From the sequence record NZ_CP044066.1: 64,000 bases of DNA. One strand, written 5' to 3'. The first letter of the stretch is position 1, and each line of letters begins with the position of its first letter. This stretch comes from a plasmid. The translations under genes and the position numbers were made by a program. Of this stretch, positions 18,521-64,000 are shown in pieces. The notes under the pieces were generated by a model. The model saw only the letters and a list, made by a program, of their open reading frames with translations, ran no database searches and was not told the DNA's origin.

Positions 18521-18569
18521 TGCAAGCTTTCGTGGATCCGGGCCGCCAAAGCCGAGAGACACGCTATGT

Positions 18570-18632: not shown

Positions 18633-19793
18633 TCAGGACTGGTCTCCGGACTCATAACGCTCGAACAGCCGATAAAGTGCACGTCGGCTAATCCCCAGAG
18701 ATAGTGCAGCCCGGCTCTTATTCCCCTGGTGCTCCGCAACAGCGTGAACAGCCTGCTTCGGACTGATCACAGGACGTCTCTTCGCCTCCTGCGTCGCGTA
18801 GGTAGACAAGTAGGCGTTGGCCTTACTGACACGACTGTGCCCCGCGGCCTCCGCCACCCGTCGCTGCCCTTCCCGGTGCACCTCACGATCAATTCTGTGT
18901 GAGCCTTCCTTGATCGGCGCGAGCGCACCGGTGATGTCCGAATAAAGTCCTTGCAGGTACTCGTGGCGCAGGCCGTGCGCAGTCCGTCCCAACCGGCCGT
19001 CTTTCGTTACGCCATGTTTGGCCAGCAGATCGTAGAAGTGATCGGACCAGGAGTCATAACTGTGCGCATCAGGAATAGTGGAACCCGTCCGGCTGTTCGT
19101 GAAGCGTGCGGCGATCTCCAGCAGGTCATATTGCTCTTTTGGCCGCGTGATGGGGACGGGCCGGCTCCTGCCGCCCTTCGACCCCTCGCTGACATAGATG
19201 GCACCGTCTCGCAGATCCCGCACGGGCCGGAATTTGAATGCCTCCTCAACGCGAAGGCCGAATTTCCACATCAGGCGTAGTTGAACCCCTGCAAGGACAT
19301 CTTCTGCCTCGACTCTCCGGATCTCTGCTTCGATATCGATGCCCTTCGCCGACCAGCTCAGATCGTCTTGCGCTGTGTAATAGCGTTTCAAGCCTGCTGC
19401 TTTCCTATCCACGTAGCCTTCGAGCGTCAGCACGAGATTCGGCTTTCCCATCCAGTGGGCGATCGCCCGCAGGTACGTCAGCTTGTTCTCAATCGTACCG
19501 GCCGTCTGCCCCTTCTTCACCCAATACGTCACCAGCCACGCCACGTGCTTGTGACGGATCGACCAGGGCGACTCAATGGCATACCCACCGTCGTTCCGCA
19601 GCTCACGAATCGCCGCACATAAGCCGACGAGCCGATACTCCTGCGTTTTAACGCTCAGTGCATTTCGACTACGGCGCGTCTGGCTGTGAATCCGATCGAC
19701 ATTGTCCTCAAACAATGCGATCAACTCGCTCTCAAGGCGCTTTGGGAAGCCGTAGCTACGGATCTTCCCCCGGTAGTCAATTCTGATGCCCAT
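18633..19793 (-). CDS. Tyrosine recombinase (integrase family) with a C-terminal Fis-type HTH extension
   Basis: HGLRHEY box and AGHSRVSKANAYLSTY catalytic region, followed by KSRAALSLGISRRALYRLFERYE (HTH_8-like). An AGGAAA RBS precedes the ATG at 19793. Confidence 0.7.
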   Translation of the reverse strand: MGIRIDYRGKIRSYGFPKRLESELIALFEDNVDRIHSQTRRSRNALSVKTQEYRLVGLCAAIRELRNDGGYAIESPWSIRHKHVAWLVTYWVKKGQTAGTIENKLTYLRAIAHWMGKPNLVLTLEGYVDRKAAGLKRYYTAQDDLSWSAKGIDIEAEIRRVEAEDVLAGVQLRLMWKFGLRVEEAFKFRPVRDLRDGAIYVSEGSKGGRSRPVPITRPKEQYDLLEIAARFTNSRTGSTIPDAHSYDSWSDHFYDLLAKHGVTKDGRLGRTAHGLRHEYLQGLYSDITGALAPIKEGSHRIDREVHREGQRRVAEAAGHSRVSKANAYLSTYATQEAKRRPVISPKQAVHAVAEHQGNKSRAALSLGISRRALYRLFERYESGDQS

Positions 19794-20610
19794 CCTGTCT
19801 TTCCTGTTGCTCGTGCTGAGCCGCCGCGCTACGCGTTTCCGCGCACTTTGCTGTCCCATCCCGCAGTTGAAAGCCCCGTTCATCCAACCGCCGCCGACTG
19901 ATTGTCCCCATCGGCACAGGGCACTGCCTTCCTATCCTTTAGCGATAACATCGATCAACCAGACACAGGGAAGAACTGTGCTCCGGCTGCCCGTGAAGCT
20001 GCCCAAGCGGCTCGCGCCGCCCGGTCTCCACGGATACCCCGCCTGCCGCGTGCATGACGCGTTCCGCAACCCGCGGACGTTCCGGGGTCGCAAGCCTGCT
20101 GGGCAAATCGTTCTTGCGCATTCTGTTCCGGCTGCGCCTACCGGTCGTCATGTGAAGGGATTCGCGATAGCCGAAGGCCCAATCGCTTCCAATCCCCCGT
20201 CCCCAAGTCGATTCACCTTGGCCGCAGTGTGTCGGGCCGCCTGAACCGTACCCAGCGCTATCGCTGTAAGGACGTATCTTCCGTTGGATGATGGGTGTGC
20301 GACTGTGCGCCTCCCAATCGGTCTCAATATGTTCCAGCGCACGCTTGGGCGCTGAGATCGAGTGTTATCGCGGTGTGCAGCCTTCCTCAGTGTCGGCCAC
20401 TTTCTGCTTGATTAGACTGAAAAAAATGCCGGTTCAATTTCCGGCGGGCACAGTGCGGCTTCGCGAGGTTCTTCGCACGGAAGAACCGGATGCCGTTGTT
20501 GCCGCGCGAAGGCGGCGAGGTCGATGCGTCGGGGACGCGGTAAGAGCCCACAGAATAGCCGAACACCGGCGCATCGAACAACCGAAACGCGCGCGATTTT
20601 GGGAGGTTTC

Positions 20611-24747: not shown

Positions 24748-25536
24748 TCAGTGGATGCGATTGATTGACCAGACCCAGCGGTCCCAAAGCTTCTGCTGGT
24801 TGGTCGCACGATCAATAATGGGACGCCCGGTCTTCTGATCGAAGGCCGGCACTTTTTCCTTATGAAGCCGGCGAATGCCAACGCGCTCGCCTAGCTCGCA
24901 ATGGGCGCTGGCCAGGACGTCCTTGAGGCCTTCGCCCTGCAGCACCTTCTCGCCAGCACTGGTTTCGAGCTTCACGGCGAACGAGGTGTAGGTCGGCTTG
25001 CCGCCCGGCTTGGGCTTGCGATTGGGAAACTCCATCTCGCCCCACTCCACCAGCTTTCCGACTGTGTAGTTGGACGAGGAAGCTTCAGCAGCGCGCGGTT
25101 TGACATGAGGCTGCGCGACGGCGTACTCATCGCGCGCCGCTCCACTGGGTTGCGTCTCCGGCTGGGCGCTCTTTCGAGCGGGCTGGATCGATTGCATCCT
25201 CGCGTCACGCACTACGTCTTCAGCGACCTTCTGCGGCGTGACGCCAGGCTGATCGTAGGTGCGAACCTTGCTCCAGCGCGGCACGACGTCGGGCAGTAGC
25301 TTGTTACCGAATGCGGTGTGGCGAATGCGACGATCGAACTCGGCCACGAAGTGCACCACGCGATCTCCTTCATCTCGAAACAGATGAGGGATGCCATCGA
25401 TCTGCATGTGGAACTCGTTATCGGCGCCAGTGCCGACCGCGATCATGTCCGCCGGCGAGGGGTGGTCGCTCTGGAGCTCAGCACGGTCGCTGACCAGCGC
25501 GGCAGCGACCTGCTTGATTAGATTGAGCAGTGACAT
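24748..25536 (-). CDS. Hypothetical protein
   Basis: 262 aa, in an operon with ssb and the primase. Confidence 0.5.
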   Translation of the reverse strand: MSLLNLIKQVAAALVSDRAELQSDHPSPADMIAVGTGADNEFHMQIDGIPHLFRDEGDRVVHFVAEFDRRIRHTAFGNKLLPDVVPRWSKVRTYDQPGVTPQKVAEDVVRDARMQSIQPARKSAQPETQPSGAARDEYAVAQPHVKPRAAEASSSNYTVGKLVEWGEMEFPNRKPKPGGKPTYTSFAVKLETSAGEKVLQGEGLKDVLASAHCELGERVGIRRLHKEKVPAFDQKTGRPIIDRATNQQKLWDRWVWSINRIH

Positions 25537-25543
25537 GGGGATT

Positions 25544-25966
25544 TCATAATAGAGAGCCGTAGCACTGGCGCTTGACCTCCTCGAGGACAGCCGTCAGGCG
25601 AGCGTGACCAAAGACAACGTCTTGCAGGACGTCAGGGCTCACGCCGCTGATGTCGCAGACGTACTTGTAGGGAATGGCGCCATCCCAGAACCCGAAAATC
25701 CAGCCGATCGTCATGAAGAGCTCTTTGCGATCGACGGCTTCGTTACGGATGCACTCCCGGAACAGCTTTGCGCAGTCCAGCAGCGATTCGGGCATGTTGA
25801 CGCCATGGCGGCTGCCACAGGCGAGGTCGATGAGCGCATCGGTCAGGCGCTCGCGCAGCGACTCGTCGACTGGCTCTCGCCGGCTGCGATCCGTCGGGGG
25901 AGGAGCAACGATGGCGGTCGCTTCTCCGAAGAAGTCCAGTTGCCATCCTGCGTTGGTTGTTTCCAT
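25544..25966 (-). CDS. Hypothetical protein
   Basis: 140 aa, in the same operon. Confidence 0.45.
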   Translation of the reverse strand: METTNAGWQLDFFGEATAIVAPPPTDRSRREPVDESLRERLTDALIDLACGSRHGVNMPESLLDCAKLFRECIRNEAVDRKELFMTIGWIFGFWDGAIPYKYVCDISGVSPDVLQDVVFGHARLTAVLEEVKRQCYGSLL

Positions 25967-26065
25967 GATGGTCTCCGGACGGGCGTCCGAAGACCCACCT
26001 GCCGGCGGGTATCGGATACCCGCGACAGGTGGAAGAAGGCCGCCCGGGAACCGGGCGGCGGTGGA

Positions 26066-26389
26066 TCAGGGACGGTTGTCCGTCCCGGTTCGACGAATCG
26101 GTGTCACAACTGCCGAGCGTTCGTACTTGCGCTCGGGCTGCTCCTCCGGTTGAGGCGCGTCGGCTTTCGGCTTGGACGGATAGTCCGGCATCGATACCTT
26201 CGGTGCTGCAGGGATGCTGCGGCTGCTGTTGACGGCCTTGTTGTACAGATACGAGATCCCAACGACCGTCACGAATACACCGACGGGAAACGACTGGGAT
26301 GCGAGATACAGCACCATGCAGAGCACGAGCAGTTGCAGGGGGCGCTTGACGAGATGAGCAAGGGATTCCACGGTTTCTCTCCGAAACAT
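26066..26389 (-). CDS. Hypothetical membrane protein
   Basis: 107 aa with one or two TM helices (LLVLCMVLYLASQSFPVGVFVTVVGISYLY). It is the first gene of the minus-strand block. Confidence 0.4.
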   Translation of the reverse strand: MFRRETVESLAHLVKRPLQLLVLCMVLYLASQSFPVGVFVTVVGISYLYNKAVNSSRSIPAAPKVSMPDYPSKPKADAPQPEEQPERKYERSAVVTPIRRTGTDNRP

Positions 26390-26607: not shown

Positions 26608-26680
26608 GAGGCTCAAGAACCCGGAAAGCTCACCAAAACCATACGTCTTTCTGCCGAAATAGGTCGAGCATGCTCGGTAG
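26608..26680. repeat. Repeated regulatory element, copy b, in the divergent promoter region (palindrome TCGAGCATGCTCGg at 26664..26677)
   Basis: GAGGCTCAAGAACCCGGAAAGCTCACCAAAACCATACGTCTTTCTGCCGAAATAGGTCGAGCATGCTCGG shares the GAAAGCTCACCAA and palindrome blocks with copy c. Confidence 0.7.
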
Positions 26681-26985
26681 ATTTCATAATACGAAACAAA
26701 TGTATCTTCAGAACGGATACAAACGATTTAGATATTACTTAGATCTGATCTTCTTTTTATGCAGCTCTATCCCGTAAGTTGGGGGTAACTCACTAAAGCT
26801 GTCCTTTCTCACCCCGATAAGACGCATACATGTAACCGTCTTAAGGCCGCCTTCCGAAAAAGGGGCCCGAAAAAACGTAGCTTTCTGCCGGCTGCTGTGG
26901 CCGGGCGTTTCGTAATCTCTGCGGAGGCTTGACAACGCAAATCAAACGCTACGCTGGTTGTCATGTTCATCAACGAGAGTGAAAC

Positions 26986-28209
26986 ATGCCAGAAAAGAAG
27001 AAGAAACTTGATGGTCTATCGGTGCCGCCTGCGGAGTCGGCCAAGAAAGCCGATATCGTAGATTTTCCTGTCTCACGCCTGCAGGCCTCCATGGACGCTC
27101 GGTTGCGCGAGATCATGGGCCCCAGCCTCAGCGAGGATCAGCTTGGCCGCCTTGGCGACGCCATCCATAACATTCGGCGGGTGCGCGAGAAGATCGAGCG
27201 CGCGCTGCTCGAGATGGGCTCCGAGTTGCAGAACATTCATGACCTGTCGATGGAATCGGTCATCGGGGAGTTCGGCGACACGCGCGGGGCGCGGATGCGT
27301 GGCTGGACCAAGTTCAATCAACTCGCGAAGGAACTGCTCGAGCTTCAGCCCAACCAGGCGAAGCTGTATCTTGGCCTGTATGTCCGCTTCCAGAACCACA
27401 ATGGCGCACTGAGCAAGCTCAATACCGGCGAACTGATGATCCTGCAGCCCGCCGAGTACACCGATGAGGAAGTCGACGCTGTCATCGAGTTCAAGGACAC
27501 CGACCCAACGTACCGCCGCGGGAAGATCCGTGACTTCATCAAGCAACTGCGACGAAAGCACGAGCAGGTCATCGATGTGTCCACCCGTCTGGACATTGCA
27601 ACCTCTGAACTTGCCAACACGGTTCAGGACAATGCTGACAAAGACCTCGAAATCCGTCGGCTCAACGAAGAAGTATCGCGGCTTGCTGCGGAGCGCGATG
27701 CCGATCGCGATGCCCTGAGTCACGTGCGCGAAGAACTCACCCGGCATAACCATTCGCAGAGCATGCAGCAGATGCGTATCCAGGATCTGGAGCGCGAGAC
27801 CCGGGAGTTGCAGGAGCGCGTAGCGAGCGCGCGCGCGAATGCGCGCACCGAGACGGTGGAGGTACCGATTGTCCCCCCCGGCTACGCTACGATCGAAGAG
27901 GCGCTGGCCGCGAAGAATTCGGAGTTGGAAGCAGCACGGAGCCAGCTTGCCGATATCGAAAACCGGCGCCTCGGGATCGAACAAGAGATCAAGGACCGCG
28001 CTAGCGTTCTGGATCGTCGCGCGAAGGCCGACGGCGCACTCGCGACGCTTGTCGATCAGTTTGAGAAGACGGTCTCGGCGTTCGCGGCCACGCAACTGGC
28101 CGTGCAGATGGACGGCAGCGTCGATCAGTTCCAATCGACGCTCACGGTGCTTGACAGCATCGTGGGTCGCCTCCACGCAGATATTCGCGCTGCCCTCCAA
28201 ACTCGCTGA
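26986..28209 (+). CDS. Coiled-coil protein (407 aa), first gene of the regulatory operon
   Basis: It has long heptad-rich segments (IRRLNEEVSRLAAERDADRDALSHVREEL...). A TTGACA-N16-TACGCT promoter candidate lies at 26927..26954. Confidence 0.5.
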   Translation: MPEKKKKLDGLSVPPAESAKKADIVDFPVSRLQASMDARLREIMGPSLSEDQLGRLGDAIHNIRRVREKIERALLEMGSELQNIHDLSMESVIGEFGDTRGARMRGWTKFNQLAKELLELQPNQAKLYLGLYVRFQNHNGALSKLNTGELMILQPAEYTDEEVDAVIEFKDTDPTYRRGKIRDFIKQLRRKHEQVIDVSTRLDIATSELANTVQDNADKDLEIRRLNEEVSRLAAERDADRDALSHVREELTRHNHSQSMQQMRIQDLERETRELQERVASARANARTETVEVPIVPPGYATIEEALAAKNSELEAARSQLADIENRRLGIEQEIKDRASVLDRRAKADGALATLVDQFEKTVSAFAATQLAVQMDGSVDQFQSTLTVLDSIVGRLHADIRAALQTR

Positions 28210-28220
28210 TCAGACCTGCC

Positions 28221-29396
28221 ATGCAACAACAATCTTTGACGGCGGATTTTGAGCGCCTGCAATTGACCCGAATGACGTGCGATCGCATTCGTTCGGCCAA
28301 CTACCATCTCACCGCTCACCTCGCCGAAGCGCTGAGCGCGCACCCCCAGCTGGATGCCGTTCTGCACATTGATCGCGCGCATATCGACAAGCTGCGGAAG
28401 GCCGAGGCAACGCAACGGGACCTGATGGGTACGCCCTTCCTCGTTGTGGTACCGACACTCATGGACGTGCACGACTGGAAGTGTCTGACGGAGGGTACGA
28501 CTACCACCGTCGCCGTGGACAAGCTCCGCCACCAACTGCCCAAATGGAGCAACGACGACAAGCTTCGCCTCTTCTTCAACAACCGCCATTACATCTGGCT
28601 GATGGTCGAGCTGCTGCATGTGAGTATCCTCGCTGCGCCGCTCCTCGGCATCAGCAAAGAGCTCGCCGAGTACCTTCGATCGCTGCCGCAGCACGTTCTC
28701 GACATGGTTATCGCGAAGGTCGATTTCCCGATCTTCCGCTGGTGCCTCGACAACAGGCGCTTCTGGATCGACTTCGAAACATCGCGCCTGTCCTCGGATG
28801 CGATCGGCCACCATTTCTTGGCCACCGTGCCCATCCGCGCCGATCGGATCGAGGCGAACCAGAGTTGGACGAACCTCCGCCTCGACCCGTTGAAGAAGAA
28901 GGTCTACGGTGAATTGATGATCCGGCAATACTGTCGCGCCTCCACGGTCACGTCGCTGCTCGGTATCAATTCGACCAAGACTCGCCAGCTCTTCCAGTCA
29001 ATTCATGGAGCCTCTTCGCCGACGGGTCAGCTGCCGACCTCGACAGCATGGTACTTCGAACAACCGTTGCATCGCATGCAGGCAACGATGATGGTGACGC
29101 TGTACCGGATCGGTCTCGCCTTTGGGGGCAGTGTCCCTGAAGCATTCATTGCCGCCTACGACTTGTTCGACAAGTTCTTCGGCCCCGATTCGCGGATCTC
29201 CGCAGACCGGGCGTGCCACATCTGCCGATCGATGTCCACGGACACACAGCTGGACCTTGCCCCCTGCCGAAGTTGCCGCACCCCTTACCTTATCGCCAAC
29301 ACAGCGCCCAAGATCGAGCTCAGCAACAGCTTCTCGTGCCCGGGCTGCAGCGGGGCGCTGGGGAACGGACAACTCGGCCGCCGTCGCAAGCAATAA
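28221..29396 (+). CDS. Putative transcriptional activator with an FlhC-like C-terminal domain (zinc-binding Cys4) and a unique 230-aa N-terminal extension
   Basis: GQLPTSTAWYFEQPLHRMQATMMVTLYRIGLAFGGSVPEAFIAAYDLF resembles the FlhC core. The CHIC...CRSC...CPGC Cys cluster parallels the FlhC zinc site. Confidence 0.5.
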   Translation: MQQQSLTADFERLQLTRMTCDRIRSANYHLTAHLAEALSAHPQLDAVLHIDRAHIDKLRKAEATQRDLMGTPFLVVVPTLMDVHDWKCLTEGTTTTVAVDKLRHQLPKWSNDDKLRLFFNNRHYIWLMVELLHVSILAAPLLGISKELAEYLRSLPQHVLDMVIAKVDFPIFRWCLDNRRFWIDFETSRLSSDAIGHHFLATVPIRADRIEANQSWTNLRLDPLKKKVYGELMIRQYCRASTVTSLLGINSTKTRQLFQSIHGASSPTGQLPTSTAWYFEQPLHRMQATMMVTLYRIGLAFGGSVPEAFIAAYDLFDKFFGPDSRISADRACHICRSMSTDTQLDLAPCRSCRTPYLIANTAPKIELSNSFSCPGCSGALGNGQLGRRRKQ

Positions 29397-45045: not shown

Positions 45046-45968
45046 CAGAAGAGCCCCAGGATGCGGCCACGGCCGCGCTCCACGCGTACTTCCTCGCGGC
45101 CCGAACGCAGGACCACGGTGTCCGCGAGGCGCTGCACGACGAGGTAGCCGCCTCGGCGCAGCGCGTTGACCACGACGTAGTCACTCCCGTCCTTGACCAG
45201 CGCCACCGGCCAGTTTTGCGAGGCCCCCGCGGGCAGGCGCAGCCACAGCGCCTTGCCATCATCGAATGCCGTCTCCGGCTTGAAATCGGCGCTGCCAGAA
45301 ATCGAGTACTCGAAGTTGAGCTTCTCCGGCGAGACGCCGATCGCCTCGGCATTCCGCTCGTCGGCCACGTCGCCAGCGCGGGCCTCACCCGCGTCCGCCT
45401 TCGCGTCGTTGCGCGCCTTGACCTTTGCCGCTACCGAGGTCGGAATACGGAACCGCACCTTCTGATAAAAGATGCCGCCCAGCGGCGACGACACGAGTGT
45501 GAACTCGTAGCTGCGCTTGTTCGTGTTCACCGACAGTGTGTTCACGAGGCCTGCCGCCTGCGGCTTCACGTAGAGGTGATTGACGCCGTCGGTCTCGTAG
45601 TCCCAGCGAACGCTTTCGCCCCACGCGGGCTCGCCGACAATCTGCTCGTCGTCGGGGAACTCGATGGTTGTCATCTTCAGCGGCGCGCTCAGCACGCGGA
45701 AGATCTGATCGCGGCTGTAGGTAAAGACGACAAGCCGCGAATCGCCGGGCAACGCCACCGGATCAACGCCGCCGTTGAACGGATTCGCCGGGTTCATGGC
45801 GTCGCTCATATCGCCCACGCTCAGGCCGCCCAGGCCTGCGCCAGCGCGGCCGGGAAGCTTGTCGGCGGCGTGGCCGTCGGGGACAGAGAGCGCGAACGCC
45901 AGCACGGCGGCAATGGCGTAGGGGAGAATCCGGGAGGATTTGGCTTCCATGGCTTCTGAGCGCGGCAT
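45045..45968 (-). CDS. virB9: VirB9/TrbG
   Basis: Signal peptide. N-domain ...TIEFPDDEQIVGEPAWGESVRWDYETDGVNHLYVKP...NTLSVNTNKRSYEFTLVSS. C-domain FEYSISG...ALWLRLP...VALVKDGSDYVVVNALRRGGYLVV. Its start overlaps the virB8 stop (TAATG). Confidence 0.8.
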   Translation of the reverse strand: MPRSEAMEAKSSRILPYAIAAVLAFALSVPDGHAADKLPGRAGAGLGGLSVGDMSDAMNPANPFNGGVDPVALPGDSRLVVFTYSRDQIFRVLSAPLKMTTIEFPDDEQIVGEPAWGESVRWDYETDGVNHLYVKPQAAGLVNTLSVNTNKRSYEFTLVSSPLGGIFYQKVRFRIPTSVAAKVKARNDAKADAGEARAGDVADERNAEAIGVSPEKLNFEYSISGSADFKPETAFDDGKALWLRLPAGASQNWPVALVKDGSDYVVVNALRRGGYLVVQRLADTVVLRSGREEVRVERGRGRILGLF

Positions 45969-46675
45969 TACGCCTGCGACTTTTGGATGCTGAAGAAAAC
46001 GGGATAGATGCCGAACGGATTCGTGCCGAGCACGGCATCGCTGGTCGGCGGCTTGACCTGATAGCGGAACGTAATGGCGTAGCGCTGCCTGCGCGGCTTG
46101 TAGCCGTCCTCGCTGGTGGAGGTCACGAACTCCACGGCGACCGTGCTGTCCGGCAGGACGGCGATGTTCAGAATCTTCGGCTCGCGCACAAGCGTGGGCG
46201 AGGTGATGACCTGACGGATCGGCTGATCGTCGTCCACCCATTCCTGAAACTGCTGGCGGCCTGACCCGACCATTTGCTCGCGCACGGAGCGCAGGTTCTG
46301 CGCAATGCGGGAGCGCTCGACGTCCGTGCTCAGGATCGGCTCGATCGTGAACCAGCGCGTGACCAGATCCTTGAACGCCCACTTCAGGGCGAGATCGTCT
46401 GGACGGTAGTCGGTCAACTCGCGCACGAACGGCTTGCCCGTGGCGTCGGCGGATACCCCAACCGTCTTCACCACCGATGGCGGCGACTCGCGCGTCATGA
46501 TCGCCGCGAATGCAATGAACCCGATCCCAAGCGTTGCGATCTTCCAGTGATTGCGCTCGACGGCCAGTCGCGTCGTGCGATCAAAGATGACCTGCTCGGG
46601 GTTCTCGTCGGCGTACATCCCCGGCGCGACGCTCAGAGGTTTGGCCTTGTCGGATTTCTTGGTGAACAGACGCAT
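45968..46675 (-). CDS. virB8: VirB8/TrbF
   Basis: A bitopic protein with an N-terminal TM segment, an NTF2-like domain, and a C-terminal ...LGTNPFGIYPVFFS motif. Confidence 0.75.
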   Translation of the reverse strand: MRLFTKKSDKAKPLSVAPGMYADENPEQVIFDRTTRLAVERNHWKIATLGIGFIAFAAIMTRESPPSVVKTVGVSADATGKPFVRELTDYRPDDLALKWAFKDLVTRWFTIEPILSTDVERSRIAQNLRSVREQMVGSGRQQFQEWVDDDQPIRQVITSPTLVREPKILNIAVLPDSTVAVEFVTSTSEDGYKPRRQRYAITFRYQVKPPTSDAVLGTNPFGIYPVFFSIQKSQA

Positions 46676-46732
46676 GCGGCTTTCCTGTTGGATGCCGCTA
46701 ATTGGAACAGCTAACCACGCGTCGTAGAGGGC

Positions 46733-46763
46733 GAAAAGCTATGCGATTTTGCGGAGCTTTTTG
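46733..46763. repeat. Left arm of a 28-bp inverted repeat flanking the T4SS divergent control region
   Basis: GAAAAGCTATGCGATTTTGCGGAGCTTT has its reverse-complement partner at 47117..47148, matching 27 of 28 bases. Confidence 0.6.
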
Positions 46764-46872
46764 CGATTCTTGCTTCGCCTCGCTGCACTCGATGAGCGCG
46801 GGTCACGGAGTCGAACCGCCTATCGACGAAGCATGAAGCCGCTAGAGAAGGCTCCTTTGTTACATCTCAATC

Positions 46873-46940
46873 CAGAAAGCTCACCAATTTATGTCGTGTT
46901 TCTGCGGAAATAGGTCGAGCATGCTCGAACTTTCCAGGCT
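46873..46940. repeat. Repeated regulatory element, copy c (perfect palindrome TCGAGCATGCTCGA at 46915..46928)
   Basis: GAAAGCTCACCAATTTATGTCGTGTTTCTGCGGAAATAGGTCGAGCATGCTCGAACTTTCCAGGC lies between the divergent virB8 and virB11 operons. Confidence 0.7.
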
Positions 46941-47116
46941 AAACGTCACATTTATTGGTGGCCCGCTTGCTGTGCGCACTGATCAAAGAGAAGGAAGACC
47001 GAGCAGAACGAGTTCGCTCGTTTGCTCTCGATCGCGGGCGGCCATTGCAGACGCTCTGGCATGGTGTCTCATCGTGGCATCAAATCCGCGCATACGCCCG
47101 TCGTAGCCGATAAACC

Positions 47117-47148
47117 GAGAAAGCTCCTCAAAATCGCATAGCTTTCCG
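47117..47148. repeat. Right arm of the 28-bp inverted repeat
   Basis: GAGAAAGCTCCTCAAAATCGCATAGCTTTCC is the reverse complement of the left arm. Confidence 0.6.
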
Positions 47149-47186
47149 GACTCCACGCGAGCCCGCGGCCGCCAACAATAGCGGGC

Positions 47187-48236
47187 ATGGATTCCTCTGC
47201 CAATCACCCGCTCCTGCAGCTCAGTCAACTCGAAGAGAGTGCCGTCGGCATGTTCTTCGAATCGCTGGCGCCCATCCGTGAGCACATGACCGCGCCGGAC
47301 GTGGCCGAAGTCATGATCAATCGCCACGACAACGTATGGGTAGAGCGGCGTGGCGTCATGACTCGGCTGGAAGTCAGCATCGAGCCCGCAAAACTCGAAG
47401 GTGCCATCCGATCGCTTGCCTCCTCGGTACAGAAATCCGCGGTGCGCGGCACGTCGCAGGGAATTATCAACGCTGGCCACAAGGGTCTGCGTATCGCCGC
47501 AGTCATGGCGCCCACCGCCATCGGCGGCCATGCGCTGAGCATTCGCCGGCATCAGGAACGCAATCTGTCCCTCAAGGACTACGTCGCGGCCGGCGCCTTC
47601 TCTGCCAGGCACGCCCGGCAGGTCGATACCGATCGTCCCATCTTCTCCGGACCGGTCGAGGACGAGTCCCTGATGGAGGCGCTGTCGCAGCTCGTGAGAC
47701 AGCGCAAGAACATTCTCGTCGCAGGCGGCACGTCGTCCGGCAAGACCACCTTCCTGAACGCACTGGTCGAGGTGATTCCAGGCGAGGAGCGCGTGCTGAC
47801 GATCGAAGACACACAGGAACTGAAGCCGCGCGTCCCCAATCTCGTCCGCCTGCTGTCAAACACCGACAAGGGGGTCAGCACCCAGCAACTCGTGGCACTG
47901 TCGCTGCGCTTTCGCCCCGATCGCATCCTCGTCGGCGAGGTACGGGGCGGCGAAGCGTACGACATGCTCCAGGCCTTCAACACCGGTCATGACGGCGGCA
48001 TGGGATCGCTTCACGCACCCAATGCGCGCGCCGCCCTCTCCCGCCTCGAGAGCATGGCCCTTCTCGGGATTCCGCCGGGCTCCGGCTGGAAGGTCGAAGA
48101 CATGCGCAAACTCGTCGCCGACTGCATCCATTACGTCATCCACATGAAGCGCACCGGCGAGATGCGCCATGTCTCCGAAATCATCGAAGTCAAAGGCATC
48201 CGCGGCAACGAATACGTTGTCGAGCGCGTTTTTTAA
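47187..48236 (+). CDS. virB11: VirB11-like secretion ATPase
   Basis: Walker A NILVAGGTSSGKTTFLNAL; motifs RILVGEVRGGEAYDMLQAFNTGHDG and LHAPNARAALSRLE. Confidence 0.9.
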   Translation: MDSSANHPLLQLSQLEESAVGMFFESLAPIREHMTAPDVAEVMINRHDNVWVERRGVMTRLEVSIEPAKLEGAIRSLASSVQKSAVRGTSQGIINAGHKGLRIAAVMAPTAIGGHALSIRRHQERNLSLKDYVAAGAFSARHARQVDTDRPIFSGPVEDESLMEALSQLVRQRKNILVAGGTSSGKTTFLNALVEVIPGEERVLTIEDTQELKPRVPNLVRLLSNTDKGVSTQQLVALSLRFRPDRILVGEVRGGEAYDMLQAFNTGHDGGMGSLHAPNARAALSRLESMALLGIPPGSGWKVEDMRKLVADCIHYVIHMKRTGEMRHVSEIIEVKGIRGNEYVVERVF

Positions 48237-52132: not shown

Positions 52133-53211
52133 CGAGTCAATCCATTGCCGCGTGGATCCGCACGGCGCTGGCGTCGATCGGCGTCCTGCTGTGCCTTGCC
52201 ACGACTCCGGCGCATGCGCAAGGTGCTCCATCTGGTGAGGGCAACAACAATTCCGCCGGCGGCGGCACTAGCGCCCCGCAGCAGATCGGCGCCGTATCCC
52301 GACCAGGCGACATCGGCGCGGGGGTCAAGAAGGCCCTCGCCGGGATGGACAGAATGCGGAACGGACTCATTTCTGGCGCTACAGCCCTTAGCGATCGTGT
52401 CCGTGTTGACGCGGACAAGGTGGCTTTCGGACTCGGCGTCATTGCGATCCTGCTCGCCGGCATCCGCTTTGCGTCGACAAACGATGCTGTCGCCGCATGG
52501 ACAGACATGATGGAAACAATACTCATCCTCGGCATCTTTACCGCGCTGTACATCGGCTACACCGACTTCGGTCCAGGCATCTTCGTTTGGTTCGACAAGA
52601 TCGCAACGAGCTTCAATGCCGGCGTCAGCGTCTACGACCTGCCTGCAACGCTAGCAAGCACGGGGGGGAAGTTCTATGACTCCATCGTGCGGATCCTTCA
52701 AGCCGCACTTGGCAATCCGCTTCGACTGATTGACGCCGTCGTCGCAGCATTCGCGTTCCTGCTCGCCATGCTAGCTGTCCTGTGCGCGGCCCTTATCTAT
52801 GCGTGGTTCATCCTAGTAGGACACCTCATGGTGGCAGTGGGCATCGCTATTGGGCCGTTGGCCGTCGCATTCGGAATGCTGGACCTTTCTCGCAAGTACT
52901 TTTTTGCCTGGCTCGACTATATGGTCACAGGTTCTATGTACATGGTGATAGCGGCGATCATTGCCCAGCTGGTCTCCAGCACGCTCCAAAGCACCGTGAC
53001 CGATATCACCAATGTCGGGACTGACACGACAGTTGCTGCCGCATATGCTCTCTCTGTCGCTGTTGTTCTCGTCTTCATTGCGATGGAGATTCCAAAGATC
53101 GCAGGTTCGATCTTCGGCACAGGTGGCGGGATCAGCGGCACTGGCGGCTTCAAGATACTCGGCCGCGGGGCGTGGAATCTCGGCAGTAAGCTTGCCGGCG
53201 GGAAGAAGTGA
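52129..53211 (+). CDS. virB6: VirB6/TrbL-like polytopic inner-membrane protein
   Basis: 360 aa with a signal peptide, 6 to 7 TM helices and a Gly-rich C-terminal tail (GTGGGISGTGG). Confidence 0.75.
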   Translation: MTSQSIAAWIRTALASIGVLLCLATTPAHAQGAPSGEGNNNSAGGGTSAPQQIGAVSRPGDIGAGVKKALAGMDRMRNGLISGATALSDRVRVDADKVAFGLGVIAILLAGIRFASTNDAVAAWTDMMETILILGIFTALYIGYTDFGPGIFVWFDKIATSFNAGVSVYDLPATLASTGGKFYDSIVRILQAALGNPLRLIDAVVAAFAFLLAMLAVLCAALIYAWFILVGHLMVAVGIAIGPLAVAFGMLDLSRKYFFAWLDYMVTGSMYMVIAAIIAQLVSSTLQSTVTDITNVGTDTTVAAAYALSVAVVLVFIAMEIPKIAGSIFGTGGGISGTGGFKILGRGAWNLGSKLAGGKK

Positions 53212-54440
53212 TGACACATACGTCGCACGCGCCCCTCCCAGAGCGCGAACTCATGTTCGCGCACAAGCCTCGTATCGATCTAATCCGCCAGTACGCCAAC
53301 GAATCGGAAGCCACGGCTTTCGACGCGAAATGGCTTGCGGTACTGACCGCGTGCGCGGATTGGTTTGGCTCCATGCCCCTTCGGCCCGACGAGCACGCGG
53401 AGCCCGGCGGCGCGCTGCGGGCTACCGTCGAGGCTGCGTACTACGCGATGCGGCTGTCCGGGGCGCAGAAGTTCGGTGCAGATCAGCCATCCGAGAGACG
53501 CCGGCTGCTGGAGCCGCAGTATCTATATGCCCTCTTCCTCGCAGCCGCGTGCTCCCGGCTTGACGAACCATGCCGACATTTCCAGTTCTTTCGGGATAGC
53601 GACGGCCAAGAGTGGATCCCGGCCGCGCACGGCGGTTTCGGCGTTTGGCTGGGCGACAGCACCTACCAGGTCAGGCGCCGGGAGCAATCCACGCCCGTCG
53701 AGCGGATGAGGACGGCTCTGCTGGCCCGCGAGATTCTCGGTGCCGAGCGACTCGCACGCTTTGATCCCGTCGTGCTCTCCGACCTTTTCGGCGCCATCAA
53801 TCCAGACCCGCGGCCCGCCGGCGTCGAGACGCTCCTGCACAAGGTGGCGAGGCAGGCGGTCGAGACGGTCACACAATTTGAAGTCAAGGCACGTCGGGCC
53901 GCCTTCTCGCCTGATGCAACCCCTGCGCCGACCGCTGCCGCCCTCGCAGCCTTCGGCATCAAGGACCAGGCTCAAGTCTCGTCGATTGCCCCTGCCATCG
54001 ACGATGGCGGCACCAAGACTGTTGTTGCGAGTGCGCAGTTGCCTCATGCGCCCGCGCCGACGACCGAGGTGGCAGCAATACCCCACGCAGAGAAGCCCAA
54101 AGCGTCTGCGCTACCCGTGGACGCCGTTCGACCAACAGCCAAGGCGGTCGCTGCCGACCCGTTTGCCGAAGCACTGGCGGGCACATCCAATCTTATGCGC
54201 GACTTCTTCCGCGCGCTCTCTCAGGATGTTGCCGCCGGCAAGACGAAGGTCTCGTGGGTCGAGAACAAGCTCGCGATCAGCAAGCGGATGATCGGCAACT
54301 ATGGCATGGCGTCTGAATCCCTCGTCGAGAACCTGCGGAAGTTCAGCCTGCTCTACAAGGTCGTCGGCTCGGACATCCTGCTCGTCGACAAGGTCGCCGG
54401 GCTCATCGCCGAGCGCCCCGTCAATTCAGAAGGACCGTGA
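53208..54440 (+). CDS. Hypothetical transfer-region protein between virB6 and virD4 (relaxase/accessory candidate; no HD or 3-His relaxase motif recognised)
   Basis: 410 aa. It is translationally coupled to virB6 and virD4, and has a Pro/Ala-rich middle linker. Confidence 0.4.
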   Translation: MMTHTSHAPLPERELMFAHKPRIDLIRQYANESEATAFDAKWLAVLTACADWFGSMPLRPDEHAEPGGALRATVEAAYYAMRLSGAQKFGADQPSERRRLLEPQYLYALFLAAACSRLDEPCRHFQFFRDSDGQEWIPAAHGGFGVWLGDSTYQVRRREQSTPVERMRTALLAREILGAERLARFDPVVLSDLFGAINPDPRPAGVETLLHKVARQAVETVTQFEVKARRAAFSPDATPAPTAAALAAFGIKDQAQVSSIAPAIDDGGTKTVVASAQLPHAPAPTTEVAAIPHAEKPKASALPVDAVRPTAKAVAADPFAEALAGTSNLMRDFFRALSQDVAAGKTKVSWVENKLAISKRMIGNYGMASESLVENLRKFSLLYKVVGSDILLVDKVAGLIAERPVNSEGP

Positions 54441-56296
54441 TGCACAACTACGTCAATCATTTCCGCCCAATCTTCGAGTTTCGCGCGGTGGTGGGCTGGA
54501 GCCTTGCGATCGTGTTGCTGCTCGTCAGCGGCATGCCCGATGCCGGCTACTTCGCCTTGTTTGCTGCAGCGATGCTCGTCTTTCGGTCGTCCCAGGTGTG
54601 GCGCGCGCTGAAGTTCCGGATGGCGATCTCCACGAAGTGGTTGACCCTTATCCAGATCGATCAGCTTCTGGCCATCAGCGATGCCATGCGCAAGAAGCAG
54701 GACGCCATGTATCTGGGCCTTGGCTATGAATGGACGCAACGGCATTGCCAGATCGCACACGACATCTTGCGGATGCCATCGAGCGACATTCCCGGCCTGC
54801 CCAAATGGATGCCGTCGCCTGTCGTGAAGCGGGTCGAACAGATCTTCGCGCCCGCGGACAGCATCGCTGACGCCATGCCGCAGGGGCGCTCGTGGATTCA
54901 CGGCATGGAGCCGAAGAAGGAATGGGTGCCCTTCCACTACAAGGCGATGCCAGGCCACACCTCGGTGAGCGGCACGACTGGCTCTGGCAAGACGCGTACG
55001 TACGAGGTCATATCGACGCAGGTCATCCATAACCCGAACGACATTTTGATCATCATTGATCCGAAGAACGACAGCGACTGGATGAAGCGGGTGAAAAAGG
55101 AGTGTGAGCGCACGGGCCGGAAGTTTCTGTATTGGAAGCAGGCCGCCCCGTCGCAGTCGATTCGCCTGAATCCAATTGAAAACTGGTCGCAGCCTTCGGA
55201 AATTCCGAGCCGCATTGCACAGCTCATGGAAGAAGGCCCCTTCCGCCAGTTCGCCTTCCTGTTTATCGACCGCGCGGTAAAAGGCGAGCTCTACGTTGGC
55301 GACAAGCCAAACCTGCGCTCGATCCTGCAATACGCACAGAACGGCATCAACAAGCTTCTCGATCGTGCGCTGCGCCGGTTCTTCCCGGAAGCCGGAATGC
55401 CTGACTGGGAAGAAGAGGCCAGCGCCTACATGCAGAAGGCAGGCCAGAAGCCGGGCGGCACGCTGCTCGACGGCATGGTGCAACTGTACATGGCCCGCTT
55501 CGCGAACAAGGATCTCGGGCACGAAGCGATCGACGGGCTGGTCGCGACATTCCACCACGACCGCGATCACTACGGCCGGATCATCGCGTCGGCCCTCCCC
55601 CTGCTCCAGATGCTCGCCACAGGCGAGACCGGCCTGATGCTGGCGCCGAAAGCAGACGACTTCGAGGACGACCGCGAAATCTGGGACATCGATAAGGTTA
55701 TCAAGCAGAAGGCCGTGCTGTACGTCGGCGCCGACTCGCTCTCGAATGCGCTGGTCGCGCAGGCCATCATGTCCATGCTGCTTGCCGATATCGCGTCGGT
55801 TGCCGGGGCGATCTATAACTTCTACGAGAAGCCGCCCGAAGTCGTGCTCATCATCGACGAAGTCGCCGAGGCGATCAACGAGCAGGTGATCCAGGTCCTC
55901 AACAAGGGCCGAGGCGCCGGCTTCAAGGCGTTCGTCGCCTACCAGACCCGATCGGATCTGACGGCGAAACTCGGAAACGTCGCGAAAATGCAGCAGGTTT
56001 TGGGCAATCTGAACAATCAGATCGTCTTACGATTGGAAGACATCGACACCGCGCAGTGGTTTGCAGAGAAGGCAGGTACTACGGCGATTCAGAACATCGT
56101 GGTCTCGAGCAGCACGAGCACCGGCACCGAGGCCCACGTCGGTGAATTCAGCGGCTCGGTATCGCGCTCGATGCAGCTTGAAAAGGCGCCATTGATTCCG
56201 CCCGAACTGATCATGCAACTGCCCAACCTGCAGTACTTCCTGCGCATCTCCGGTGGCTCGGTCTATCAGGGTCGTATCCCGATCATTCAAGGTTAA
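54437..56296 (+). CDS. virD4: VirD4/TraG-family type IV coupling protein
   Basis: Two N-terminal TM helices, Walker A SVSGTTGSGKTRT, and Walker B LIIDEVAE. Confidence 0.9.
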   Translation: MMHNYVNHFRPIFEFRAVVGWSLAIVLLLVSGMPDAGYFALFAAAMLVFRSSQVWRALKFRMAISTKWLTLIQIDQLLAISDAMRKKQDAMYLGLGYEWTQRHCQIAHDILRMPSSDIPGLPKWMPSPVVKRVEQIFAPADSIADAMPQGRSWIHGMEPKKEWVPFHYKAMPGHTSVSGTTGSGKTRTYEVISTQVIHNPNDILIIIDPKNDSDWMKRVKKECERTGRKFLYWKQAAPSQSIRLNPIENWSQPSEIPSRIAQLMEEGPFRQFAFLFIDRAVKGELYVGDKPNLRSILQYAQNGINKLLDRALRRFFPEAGMPDWEEEASAYMQKAGQKPGGTLLDGMVQLYMARFANKDLGHEAIDGLVATFHHDRDHYGRIIASALPLLQMLATGETGLMLAPKADDFEDDREIWDIDKVIKQKAVLYVGADSLSNALVAQAIMSMLLADIASVAGAIYNFYEKPPEVVLIIDEVAEAINEQVIQVLNKGRGAGFKAFVAYQTRSDLTAKLGNVAKMQQVLGNLNNQIVLRLEDIDTAQWFAEKAGTTAIQNIVVSSSTSTGTEAHVGEFSGSVSRSMQLEKAPLIPPELIMQLPNLQYFLRISGGSVYQGRIPIIQG

Positions 56297-60834: not shown

Positions 60835-62148
60835 CTAGACTCCGGTCTTTCCAGTGAGAATAAAATTCAAGATATCGTCGGAGGATGGCTGTCCCCACGT
60901 TTGATCGGCAAGCCACCTGTAGAAGCTGGTTTGCGCGAGCTTGGTGGGTCGCTTCGATGCGCTCAGGCGAAGGTCCGCGGCGGCGCATTGGCTGTTGTAG
61001 CTCTCAATGAGTTGAGCCTGTTCCTCTGTAGCCAGTTCGGCGAAGTACTCGTTAGCTTGAGGCAAACGAGCGGCGATGAGCATCTCCATAGCCTCAGCGG
61101 GTGACTTTGCCTTTGGCTTCGGCTGCGAAGCTTCCTCTTTCTCGTTCGCCGCTTCCTGCTTCGCCATTCCTTTGCCCCATGCCTCAGCCAGGGCCTTCCG
61201 GAAATAAGCGGGGACATTGTCGATCGCGGGCGCGTTTTTCTTTGCCTGACGGGCTTTCACGTAAGCCAGCGCTTCTCGCACCGGCTCCGCACCATGCGTC
61301 TTGGCCAGCTTGCGGGCTTCGCTCGACGGCAGACCGAGCTTCACCATAGCCTGGATCAATTCGCCAAAACCCTCGTCCTCTGGCGCGCTGGACTCCTTGC
61401 GCGAGATCTTGAACTGAAGATCCGAGACTGATCGGCCTACCTTGTGCTCGATGAGCTCGATGTTGTGGTCGGACACCTCACAAATCTCTGCTATGCACGG
61501 GTTTAGGACGGCACGCTTGAAGATCTTGTACTCCTTGTATTTCGTCTCGCCTTCCTCGCGACCCAGGATCAGATTTCGAAACACATTCAGCGGGATCTTT
61601 GCCGTCATCCCAACGCGCTCATAGCGAACCGTATTTTCCCAGAGCGCCAGTGAGTGAGCGCGCCTGAAAAGACGGGCGATGCGCATGTCGATCATGGCGT
61701 ACCGCTCAGGATTGAGCAGTTCCTCTCGGATCTGTGGTGCGAACGAGTAAGAGAGCAATGATCCAGTGATCTTCGCTCCAGCAAGAAGTGTGGACCCAGT
61801 CCAGGTAGCTGTGCCGTCGCTGTTGAGTTGATCCCAATCCACGACTGTTCGCATCAACGACTTGGCAGTCTCCTTGATGTAGCCCGTGTCCTTCGTCGTG
61901 AGCGCCAGATTCGACATCATCTCGGGTATCGAAATCTGAAACGTGTCGGCCGTGCCGTTTTGCCCAATGCGAAGCTCAATTGCGTTCTTGATCAAGGCAT
62001 TGAAGAGCCGGCGCTGTTGAAGCGTGAGAGCCCCGCCTACTGGGGAGACATGGATTGCCTGGACCGCCTTCTTGAACGGCTCCGGGACTTCTGGCTGTTG
62101 AAACAGCGCAATCTGGCCGGCCTTCTGATTCGGCTTTCCCTTCGCCAT
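60835..62148 (-). CDS. repA: Plasmid replication initiator protein (RepA/TrfA-like winged-helix Rep)
   Basis: MAKGKPNQKAGQIALFQ...FQISIPEMMSNLALTTKDTGYIKETAKSLMRT. An AGGTG RBS sits upstream of 62148. The iteron array lies immediately upstream. Confidence 0.7.
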   Translation of the reverse strand: MAKGKPNQKAGQIALFQQPEVPEPFKKAVQAIHVSPVGGALTLQQRRLFNALIKNAIELRIGQNGTADTFQISIPEMMSNLALTTKDTGYIKETAKSLMRTVVDWDQLNSDGTATWTGSTLLAGAKITGSLLSYSFAPQIREELLNPERYAMIDMRIARLFRRAHSLALWENTVRYERVGMTAKIPLNVFRNLILGREEGETKYKEYKIFKRAVLNPCIAEICEVSDHNIELIEHKVGRSVSDLQFKISRKESSAPEDEGFGELIQAMVKLGLPSSEARKLAKTHGAEPVREALAYVKARQAKKNAPAIDNVPAYFRKALAEAWGKGMAKQEAANEKEEASQPKPKAKSPAEAMEMLIAARLPQANEYFAELATEEQAQLIESYNSQCAAADLRLSASKRPTKLAQTSFYRWLADQTWGQPSSDDILNFILTGKTGV

Positions 62149-62299
62149 CCGATGCACCTGCAAGTCGTAATGGGTGAAATCTTAGCCCCTAAGTGTTCAC
62201 CTATCAAGCCCTGTCTCATGTAGCGTCAGCAGGGCCGGCCAACGAAGAAAGCGCTTTGATTTCGTAGGCTTACCGTTACCCCTTGAGAATCTTCGCTAC

Positions 62300-62960
62300 C
62301 TCAAATCTGTTCACCGTGGGAGCCGAAACGCTACCCAAATCTATACACCTTTCTCCGACTGGACTGGGCGACTGCGATATCGAGCGAGAAAGGTGAAGCT
62401 TTTTGGTGAGCTTTCCGCCTCGAAGAGCCTCAGGCATCGATTTTCCCCAATAGCGTTCACCTTCACCGTCTCCTGGGCGGCTCTCGAAAGGGGTTGGACG
62501 GCAACAAGTTAGGATCCACTTTCAAGTACCCCCCAAAGATGTTCACCTATTACTTCACCCAAAAAGGTTCACCTGTTTCTACGCGGCACACGTTAGTGGG
62601 CGAACACTTTACTCGTAAGGCTTGGCAAATCGCCACTTCAGCTCAATGCACAGGCGAAGGTGAAGAAATCTGTGGGTCAGGGCTCTTCGAAAAAGCCCCA
62701 AAACTGTTCACCAATGAATCGACCCAAAATGTTTCACCTTTGGCGAGCTGTGGAGCGCGCTGAGGATCAGGGCCCCAAGAAGCTTCACCTCTTAGGGCCC
62801 CAAATCTGTTCACCTCATTGGGAGAATGCCCAGATCCCCATATCTTTTCACCCTACCCCCAAATCCCCAGCCCTTTGTCCCCAACGCATTGCACCATTTC
62901 CCCATATCCCCAACCCCTTCGCCCCAATACTATGCACCTAGCACCCAACACCTTTCACCT
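62300..62960. repeat. Iteron array / candidate oriV upstream of repA
   Basis: At least 8 copies of CCCCAAA-N2-4-GTTCACC, e.g. CCCCAAAGATGTTCACC 62531, CACCCAAAAAGGTTCACC 62557, GCCCCAAAACTGTTCACC 62696, GACCCAAAATGTTTCACC 62721, GCCCCAAATCTGTTCACC 62797 and CACCCAACACCTTTCACC 62942. Confidence 0.7.
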
Positions 62961-63152: not shown

Positions 63153-64000
63153 TCACTCCGTTGGGGAGGAAAATTTCGCTTTCAATTCCTCAATGAGCTC
63201 TTGGCGCCTCGCGGCGTCTTTCAGTGTCACCTCAAAGGTGACCTTGCCTGAATCCCAATCTTTCAGCACGCCGACGGGAGCTCCATCGGGACCGAGCAGC
63301 TTGTGCTGCCTCGAGGTCTCTTTGGTTTTACGCGCGGGCTTGCTCTCATAACGGGCTCGCAGCAGTTCCACGTCCTTTGCAACAGCAGCTTCGTCTCGTA
63401 CCTTCACCGCCATTTCTGATGCTACTACGCTACCAGCAGCACCTTCGAGAAGCCGAAGCTGATACAGCGTAATCAGTGCGAACGACTCCGGACGCTCTTT
63501 GACCAGATCCAGAACACTGTTGCTCAGCTTCAGGATGGACAGTGTCTTGTTGACGTTAGGCAGCGACATGCCGGTGACTTCGGCGATTGCCGACTCATTG
63601 GGGTATATCCCATCCTTGATCAAAGCGTCCCAGGCGATCGCATTGTCCAATGGAGTCTGTTGCTCGCGCTCTGCGTTCTCTTTGTACGAAAGCTGATAAA
63701 GCTGCTGATCGGTCAGCCCAGGGTGAATGAGCAGCTTGATCTTTGTTTTGCCTGCGACCTTCAGCGCCCGCAGCCGATAGTGACCACCGGCAAGAACACG
63801 GCGGCCTCCTCTCACTGTTGCGATACCCGGGACAAGCTGGCCGTCAGCTCGAATGCTTGCCGCTAGTTCATGCACACGCTCAGGACGATACAAACGCCTG
63901 GCATTGAACGGGTTCTCGTCCACAAGCGAGATATCCGTTTCCTCGTAGAACGGTTCACCCGCAACTTCATCGTTTGTCGCTCGCGCTGCCGTGTGTTCAA
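63153..64000 (-). CDS. parB: ParB-family partition protein (N-terminus runs past the window end)
   Basis: ParB box II AGGHYRLRA, plus HTH ESAIAEVTGMSLPNVNKTLSILKL. The reading frame is open to position 64000. Confidence 0.8.
   Translation of the reverse strand, partial: EHTAARATNDEVAGEPFYEETDISLVDENPFNARRLYRPERVHELAASIRADGQLVPGIATVRGGRRVLAGGHYRLRALKVAGKTKIKLLIHPGLTDQQLYQLSYKENAEREQQTPLDNAIAWDALIKDGIYPNESAIAEVTGMSLPNVNKTLSILKLSNSVLDLVKERPESFALITLYQLRLLEGAAGSVVASEMAVKVRDEAAVAKDVELLRARYESKPARKTKETSRQHKLLGPDGAPVGVLKDWDSGKVTFEVTLKDAARRQELIEELKAKFSSPTE

Follow-up and report, generated by a model that had tools for sequence, protein, structure and literature searches.

Gene-facing 28-bp boxes between the divergent conjugation operons of a plasmid related to Cupriavidus megaplasmids

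Described transfer activators and the virB8–virB11 region

SetCD of SXT/R391 elements and AcaCD of IncA/C plasmids activate divergent promoters through back-to-back boxes that lie on opposite strands beside degenerate −35 elements, as at s063/s089 in SXT and vcrx059/traI in pVCR94 (PMC4344509, PMC4207636). In ICEclc, an integrative and conjugative element (ICE), the transfer-competence promoters share a 27-bp motif, the peaks of BisC share a weak inverted repeat spaced by 12 bp, and BisD, the partner of BisC, loads at separate perfect palindromes termed bisS (PMC9286271, PMC12409273). Here we analyze a 64,000-nt stretch of a plasmid (NZ_CP044066.1; hereafter the window), in which an inverted repeat with 28-bp arms (46733–46760 and 47120–47147) lies between two divergent operons for conjugative transfer, which begin with virB8 and virB11. 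Judged by their conservation, the arms are very probably static, fixed regulator boxes. By analogy with the systems above, we favor the view that they are the gene-facing boxes of two co-regulated divergent transfer promoters, with an FlhC-family regulator as their likeliest binder and activator.

Several features are shared with SetCD and AcaCD. The window encodes an FlhC-family regulator and a MOBH relaxase, its boxes lie just upstream of the transfer operons, gene-facing and on opposite strands at divergent promoters, and these promoters have no canonical −35 element. There are differences as well: the SetCD box has 19 bp, against 28 bp and an outer dyad of 7 bp in the window; the boxes of this plasmid family are 176–458 bp apart rather than adjacent; the FlhC-like protein has 391 aa, including a 240-aa N-terminal extension; and the protein encoded next to it, a coiled-coil protein of 407 aa, does not match FlhD. 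BisDC, known from ICEclc and from ICEs of Pseudomonas and Burkholderiales, is similar in having an FlhC-like subunit with a large partner encoded just upstream and a promoter motif of ~27 bp with a weak inverted repeat and a 12-bp spacer, against the 28-bp box here; its perfect bisS palindromes are paralleled by a recurring perfect palindrome that adjoins box-like sites in the window. In contrast to BisDC, no ParB/CTP-binding domain was detected in the 407-aa partner, and the window belongs to a plasmid with a VirB-type type IV secretion system (T4SS), ICEclc being a GI-type ICE. These likenesses to SetCD, AcaCD and BisDC are of layout and description, not of base-by-base motif, and binding and activation in the window are predicted. 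The architecture is thus of a kind already known, namely gene-facing regulator boxes at divergent transfer promoters; this particular box and its regulon seem to have no description in the literature searched.

The inverted repeat and the box within its arms

The left arm (46733–46760) reads GAAAAGCTATGCGATTTTGCGGAGCTTT and the reverse complement of the right arm (47120–47147) reads GGAAAGCTATGCGATTTTGAGGAGCTTT. Their ungapped complementarity is 26/28, corrected here from 27/28 in an earlier note on this DNA, which had also ended the right arm at 47148. A spacer of 359 bp separates the arms within a virB8–virB11 intergenic region of 511 bp (46676–47186), figures that replace the 385-bp control region and 350-bp core given before. 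A repeat search lengthened both arms on their outer sides to 38 nt, with 87% complementarity (46723–46760/47120–47157), and a match like that of the arm pair was absent from 100 dinucleotide-preserving shuffles. The inverted repeat is therefore real, chance being excluded by the shuffles together with the conservation of the arms in homologs.

Read towards virB8 on the minus strand, the left arm is AAAAGCTCCGCAAAATCGCATAGCTTTT, with a position weight matrix (PWM) score of 44 bits; the virB11-facing right arm is GAAAGCTCCTCAAAATCGCATAGCTTTC on the plus strand, scoring 48 bits. Each arm is itself a dyad, with GAAAGCT and AGCTTTC as complementary halves on either side of a 14-bp core. The consensus box, GAAAGCTCnnnAAAATCGCATAGCTTTC, has the outer dyad AAGCT-N14-AGCTT and an asymmetric core: AAAAT stands on the strand pointing to the adjacent gene in 28 of the 36 distinct boxes, and the remaining 8 are one-base core variants in the same orientation. 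It is because each box holds the same orientation relative to its own operon that the arms form an inverted repeat. The motif CAAT(T)AGCGG(G)CAT follows both boxes, 26–27 nt downstream, so that the two promoter-proximal regions look like mirror copies of one promoter module.

Since the outer 7 bp of the box are self-complementary, and both leaders hold other conserved stems, the arms could instead act as RNA, in the form of a 5′-leader hairpin (GAAAGCU...AGCUUUC) that controls the stability or translation of both operon mRNAs. Pair counts over the 36 distinct boxes make this very improbable. The outer bases are nearly invariant and do not covary, with one double change at pair 7/22 and uncompensated changes in 5/36 at pair 6/23, and pairing does not extend to the inner positions. 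At the sequence level, such an invariant, non-covarying dyad is the signature of a protein site, not of an RNA stem. A search of Rfam (E ≤ 1) gave just a spurious small nucleolar RNA match outside the region, and the same box is found in the replication origin (oriV) and, in pHG1, in both orientations relative to nearby genes.

The two operons that diverge from the repeat were assigned by Pfam. The leftward one starts with virB8 (45968–46675, minus strand), comprises virB8-9-10, lytic transglycosylases and type IV pilus genes, and reaches about 31036. The rightward one starts with virB11, encoding a VirB11-type ATPase (47187–48236, plus strand), and continues with virB2, virB3, virB4, virB6 and genes for a MOBH relaxase (TraI_2; 53208–54440), a coupling protein (54437–56296), a DUF4400 protein and a UvrD-like helicase. 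The place of the repeat between the virB8/pil and virB11 operons, proposed earlier, is thereby confirmed. As both transfer operons depart from this gap, the 511-bp region is the single visible control point for conjugation. A small protein encoded in the spacer was considered and rejected: the 71-aa open reading frame (ORF) at 46891–47106 had no Pfam match, and its DNA is not conserved.

The window is plasmid backbone, encoding a Rep3-family initiator beside iterons, ParM-like, ParB-like and HU-like proteins, a single-stranded DNA-binding protein (SSB) and a primase. By DNA similarity it belongs with the Cupriavidus megaplasmids pMOL28, pHG1, pENH92 and the C. taiwanensis pSym (about 70–75% identity), with further relatives in Burkholderia, Paraburkholderia, Ralstonia and Caballeronia; the closest record found was a plasmid of Cupriavidus sp. 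H19C3, whose VirB11 is 98% identical. The homologous region was compared across 23 plasmids and contigs (L001–L003, L006–L024), and the set was extended by the nearest relative (L005), by two metagenome contigs with an identical arm (L080, L081) and by two more distant plasmids (L083, L084). The comparison covered 27 relatives, namely elements of Cupriavidus, Ralstonia and Burkholderia together with metagenome contigs; 48 VirB11 loci from Actinomycetota, Acidobacteria and similar groups (L029–L076) were excluded as unrelated systems.

Both arms were present at the equivalent place in 23/23 loci of the first set and in all 27 related elements. Among the 23 homologs, mean pairwise identity between plasmids was 0.82 for the left arm and 0.80 for the right, against 0.33–0.36, the background level, in the 20 nt immediately inside and outside each arm. 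The arms are therefore islands of conservation, which contradicts the free variation between relatives that the earlier note had coupled with simple operator sites or chance. Their distances to the start codons were likewise fixed in the 23 divergent virB8/virB11 loci measured. Relative to the virB11 ATG, the right arm is at −68 in each of the 14 homologs whose match begins at residue 1; in the others, where the match mostly begins at a later residue, it is at −66 to −86. From box end to virB11 ATG the length is 40 nt, constant in all loci but one. The left arm lies about 58 nt from the virB8 ATG.

A clear arm pair was not found in the more distant VirB11 loci L025–L027 (Paraburkholderia, C. 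pauculus), where the gene context is different. The layout does recur in two more distant plasmids. Ralstonia pB1901 has the three-box layout, and B. pseudomallei TSV202 plasmid 1 (L083) carries an inverted box pair (1407–1434/1509–1536) 74 bp apart upstream of virB11. It keeps this pair without a divergent operon, its upstream neighbor being a VWA-like gene that runs in the same direction and ends in a terminator. The two boxes may work there as one unit, or else the distal one may be left over from a rearrangement.

Boxes also occur away from the transfer operons. In the window, GAAAGC-N16-GCTTTC (≤2 mismatches) was found 15 times, against 3.2 expected. A second copy of a module of box and palindrome (26624–26685, plus strand), whose box GAAAGCTCACCAAAACCATACGTCTTTC at 26624–26651 scores 29 bits, sits in the divergent region upstream of the FlhC-family regulator operon. 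A degenerate box, AAAAGGGGCCCGAAAAAACGTAGCTTTC (26858–26885, plus strand), lies 101 nt upstream of the first ATG of that operon at 26986, and full boxes occupy the equivalent place in pHG1 (26 bits) and pMOL28 (23 bits). The sub-motif AAAACGTAGCTTTC, noted earlier in this region, is real and falls inside the degenerate box, starting at 26872 rather than 26868. A single box on the minus strand, GAAAGCTCACCAAAAAGCTTCACCTTTC (62388–62415; 24 bits), lies within the iteron-bearing origin and faces repA, which has Rep3 domains (60835–62163, minus strand). We also observed that 62160–62640 resembles an iteron-type origin, with repeated (T)GTTCACCT units upstream of repA, and the embedding of a 28-bp box there hints at a link of transfer control with replication.

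The spacer and inversion between the arms

The spacer is static in arrangement and fast-evolving; in it lie one or two further sites of the box family and a short perfect palindrome. Its central box-like site (46875–46902, plus strand), GAAAGCTCACCAATTTATGTCGTGTTTC, retains the AAGCT..N..CTT frame of the arms with a weaker match to the consensus; most homologs have a counterpart, often a near-perfect palindrome such as TAAGCTCACATTTTTATGTGAGCTTA. Four bp after this site follows the palindrome element, copy c (46907–46934, plus strand), GAAATAGGTCGAGCATGCTCGAACTTTC, with the perfect 14-bp core TCGAGCATGCTCGA at 46914–46927, as the earlier note had it between the arms. The window holds exactly three copies of the 21-mer GAAATAGGTCGAGCATGCTCG, at 18588, 26656 and 46907, and homologs carry TGAGCATGCTCA or GGAACATGTTCC at the relative place of copy c. 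The sole recurrent interior feature is a module of ~60 bp: a box-like site, 4–13 bp, and a perfect palindrome of 12–14 bp. All three copies of the module in the window (18540–18615, 26624–26685 and 46875–46934) are on the plus strand and consist of a box-like site, 4 bp and GAAATAGGTCGAGCATGCTCG. Copy a, which faces no obvious gene, is found immediately beyond the 3′ end of the recombinase gene described below. The palindrome element in this clade also fits GAAA-N20-TTTC, a frame identical to that of the arms.

The long inverted repeat had suggested to the earlier note a recombinase-driven, phase-variable switch. In such a switch the integrase would flip the inter-arm segment, redirecting a promoter between the operons; the inverted junction would read, for example, GGAGCTTTC joined to TCGGTTTATCGGCTACGACG. 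The locus does share with invertons (fimS, hin/hix, and those of Bacteroides and Clostridioides) its inverted repeats around a few hundred bp between genes, here an intergenic segment that looks free of promoters, and the element has a gene for a tyrosine recombinase (18633–19883, minus strand; not 18633–19793 as first given). Its Pfam domains are Integrase_1, Phage_int_SAM_2 and, at the C-terminus, HTH_8, so that the Fis-type helix-turn-helix (HTH) reported for it is real. The gene is nevertheless 27 kb distant and belongs to a widespread backbone type: it was matched by 193 plasmid records, 74 of them over ≥80% of its length, with genera unrelated to this T4SS among them. No link between recombinase and arms was found.

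Comparison of homologs argues strongly against such a switch. The inverted configuration was seen in none of the 27 related elements, and the palindrome was closer to the virB11 side in 18/18 scored loci of the first set of 23. The module, site first and palindrome second, points towards virB11 in the nearest relative and likewise in both metagenome contigs. The single exception, L021, has the 28-bp central site alone flipped in place with the palindrome unmoved, which is not an inversion between the arms. A central site (28–30 bp) flipped relative to the adjacent palindrome was also observed at about 2460–2515 in pHG1 (L079) and about 5060–5125 in pMOL28 (L082); such in-place flips leave the surrounding order unchanged.

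Nor does the segment behave as a conserved cassette. Inter-arm DNA ranges from 176 to 458 bp across homologs and is hypervariable, being unalignable even where VirB11 is 91–98% identical. Specifically, the spacer of the window (46761–47118) could not be aligned with those of L005, L006, L007 and L080 although the flanking genes are 90–98% identical, an unusually fast turnover for about 360 bp framed by strongly conserved sites. Within a plasmid, the two arms agree at a mean of 22.0/28 positions (range 18–27), equal to the 21.5/28 seen between plasmids, so nothing homogenizes them; the 26/28 of the window is at the upper end of the within-plasmid range. The same box occurs singly elsewhere, the inter-arm segment contains no sigma-70-like promoter, and an inversion would leave both boxes and their gene spacing unchanged, moving only hypervariable DNA. 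Unlike invertons, the locus thus has no alternative orientation in relatives, no conserved interior, no homogenized arms and no adjacent recombinase, and we consider the switch among the least probable readings.

Equally improbable is that the repeat is a remnant of a mobile element resembling a miniature inverted-repeat transposable element (MITE), an origin of transfer (oriT), or a chance repeat. In favor of these readings stand the terminal inverted repeats around about 415 bp and, for oriT, its location between divergent transfer operons in some other plasmids. For a MITE, however, no target-site duplication or direct repeat was found at the flanks and no second paired copy in the 64 kb, and the position of the arms is constant in all homologs while the interior differs. 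For oriT, the three copies in the window of the sole conserved interior element do not suit a nic region, which would be unique. The shuffles and the conservation of the arms exclude chance. Fixed regulator boxes remain the reading that we retain for the arms, and the paired operator sites that the earlier note gave as its alternative hold in substance: the arms are conserved islands built as dyads, with related boxes at 26624, 62388 and 26858–26885. The looping-based repression attached to them there remains a hypothesis, with activation at least as well indicated.

Candidate regulator, promoters and the sign of control

The candidate regulator operon (26986–29396, plus strand) encodes the 407-aa coiled-coil protein (26986–28209) and the 391-aa FlhC-family protein (28221–29396). 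The latter matches Pfam PF05280 with 33.4 bits (cut-off 27) and the PDB structure of FlhC 8j56_C with E = 2e-4, and its translation shows a C-terminal cysteine cluster. Homologs are present in 69 related plasmid records of the same genera, and most listed matches are annotated 'FlhC family transcriptional regulator'. The operon, including the 407-aa partner, is conserved in synteny about 18 kb from the T4SS region; the B. pseudomallei plasmid record also carries a regulator, which is only about 40% identical to the FlhC-family protein of the window. Based on its resemblance to SetCD, AcaCD and BisDC, this protein itself has a little under an even chance of being the box binder.

Two further observations concern this operon. 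Insertion sequences lie between the regulatory region and the FlhC operon in pMOL28 of C. metallidurans CH34 (IS1086; L082 5457–6476) and in pENH92 (IS66; L078 290–2738), and could uncouple or weaken activator expression, affecting transfer frequency. In addition, a conserved sigma-70-like promoter (TTGACA, about 15 nt, TA.G.T) is found at 26929–26960, 40–50 bp upstream of the regulator operon and downstream of the local box, and again in L079 (about 2760–2800) and L082 (about 5380–5420); for the CH34 operon only weak transcription start sites (TSSs) are listed, at 137210+ and 137231+, farther upstream.

At the transfer operons, no sigma-70-like promoter facing virB8 or virB11 was found in 46600–47260. 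The only sigma-70 match there is on the minus strand, overlapping the start of virB11 outside the inter-arm segment (TTGGCA, 17 nt, TATTGT at 47175–47203, pointing leftwards). It is probably fortuitous, because its −35 is not conserved, falling in a part of virB11 where homologs differ and have a 3-nt indel. In C. metallidurans CH34, no TSS among the 5,763 for unchallenged cells falls in the homologous intergenic region of pMOL28; TSS identifiers that match pMOL28 positions 157300–157899 are all from other replicons, and the same supplement does list a strong TSS for the ssb-side operon (PMC9045368). The absence of both a TSS and a sigma-70 match fits promoters that are silent without an activator.

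Both leaders contain conserved, GC-rich stems that run right up to the start codon. The virB8 leader (46676–46704, minus strand) has the motif CAATTAGCGGCAT and ends at the ATG; in its GC stem 46676–46680 pairs with 46694–46698, and the loop holds the ribosome-binding motif AGGA. This stem-loop resembles a CsrA/RsmA-type target. In the virB11 leader (47167–47189, plus strand) a stem GGCCGC/GCGGGC surrounds the loop CAACAATA, with the ATG directly after and no Shine-Dalgarno sequence in the leader. Symmetric or compensatory changes in this stem are seen in L010, L017, L021 and L083, and both leader stems may be translational control elements. The CAAT motif was considered as the −10 element of a leaderless virB11 and not adopted, as the symmetric changes in the flanking stem may mean that the region is transcribed.

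Taken together, these features suggest how transfer might be switched on. One copy of the box stands at a fixed distance upstream of each divergent operon, the two of which jointly encode the whole conjugation machinery, and a plasmid-encoded regulator would bind the boxes and switch both operons together. The FlhC-family protein, with its 407-aa partner, would activate promoters that have no usable −35 element, and feedback would come from the box that precedes the regulator operon itself. Activation is at least as well indicated as repression because of the gene-facing orientation of the boxes, their fixed distance, the missing sigma-70 match and the presence of an FlhC-family regulator on the plasmid.

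Several points weigh against this proposal. We infer both the binder and the sign of regulation by analogy with the described activators. A global repressor would account equally well for boxes at the replication origin and ahead of the regulator operon. The 407-aa partner gave coiled-coil matches only, with neither an FlhD nor a ParB/CTP-binding domain detected. The stems before both ATGs suggest that the TSSs lie upstream of them, possibly with the boxes over the core promoter, which would be a repressor geometry. Finally, the shared motif of ICEclc is 152 bp from the one TSS mapped there (PMC9286271, PMC12409273), and therefore class II geometry is not general for FlhC-like activators.

A repressor would use the arms as paired operators, perhaps looping the 359-bp spacer through the central sites, and would shut both transfer operons, its own region and the origin. 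Candidates include a global Kor-like regulator such as the ParB-like protein (63153–63923), or small proteins at 24748–26389. The KorA/KorB/TrbA network of IncP-1 plasmids offers a parallel in its short dyad sites, which recur in transfer, replication and regulator control regions, and in the ParB-like protein near the origin; it differs from the window in the sequence and length of the sites, no sign of −10/−35 overlap is seen here, and Kor homologs were not identified. The spread of the box family over several control regions of the backbone, oriV and the regulator operon among them, would agree with repression, as would three to four sites inside 415 bp, the 74-bp inverted pair in B. pseudomallei, which without a divergent operon hints that the pair acts as a unit, the conserved stems before both ATGs, which suggest TSSs nearer to or inside the boxes, and the apparent silence of the CH34 transfer promoters. 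Against it, no candidate with a recognizable DNA-binding domain could be linked to the sites, the boxes have no overlapping sigma-70 promoter, and a strict gene-facing asymmetry at fixed distance is more typical of activator-promoter geometry. Moreover, related MOBH elements use FlhC-type activators, and the arm spacing of 176–458 bp shows no apparent helical phasing constraint. Overall, we regard repression as unlikely, yet as a much stronger contender than inversion or an RNA hairpin.

Beyond activation of the two transfer promoters, a broader and more tentative possibility is that the box, its central variants and the palindrome make up an undescribed cis-regulatory code of a BisDC-like bipartite activator, shared by pMOL28/pHG1-type megaplasmids of Cupriavidus, Ralstonia and Burkholderia, by which a single regulator would switch the two conjugation operons, the operon encoding it and the replication origin in concert. 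Perhaps the paired boxes form a cooperative unit, since they persist in the B. pseudomallei plasmid, where no divergent operon is present.

The presence of long inverted repeats on either side of a divergent control region does not in itself indicate phase variation. The defined box provides a handle for finding the rest of the transfer regulon, a sequence to mutate for testing how transfer is switched on, and a basis for comparison with the SetCD, AcaCD and BisDC systems. The region is the only visible point of control over the mating-pair channel, thin pilus, relaxase and coupling protein of a megaplasmid family that carries metal resistance (pMOL28), hydrogen-based lithoautotrophy (pHG1) and nodulation genes (C. 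taiwanensis pSym), and that includes large Burkholderia plasmids.

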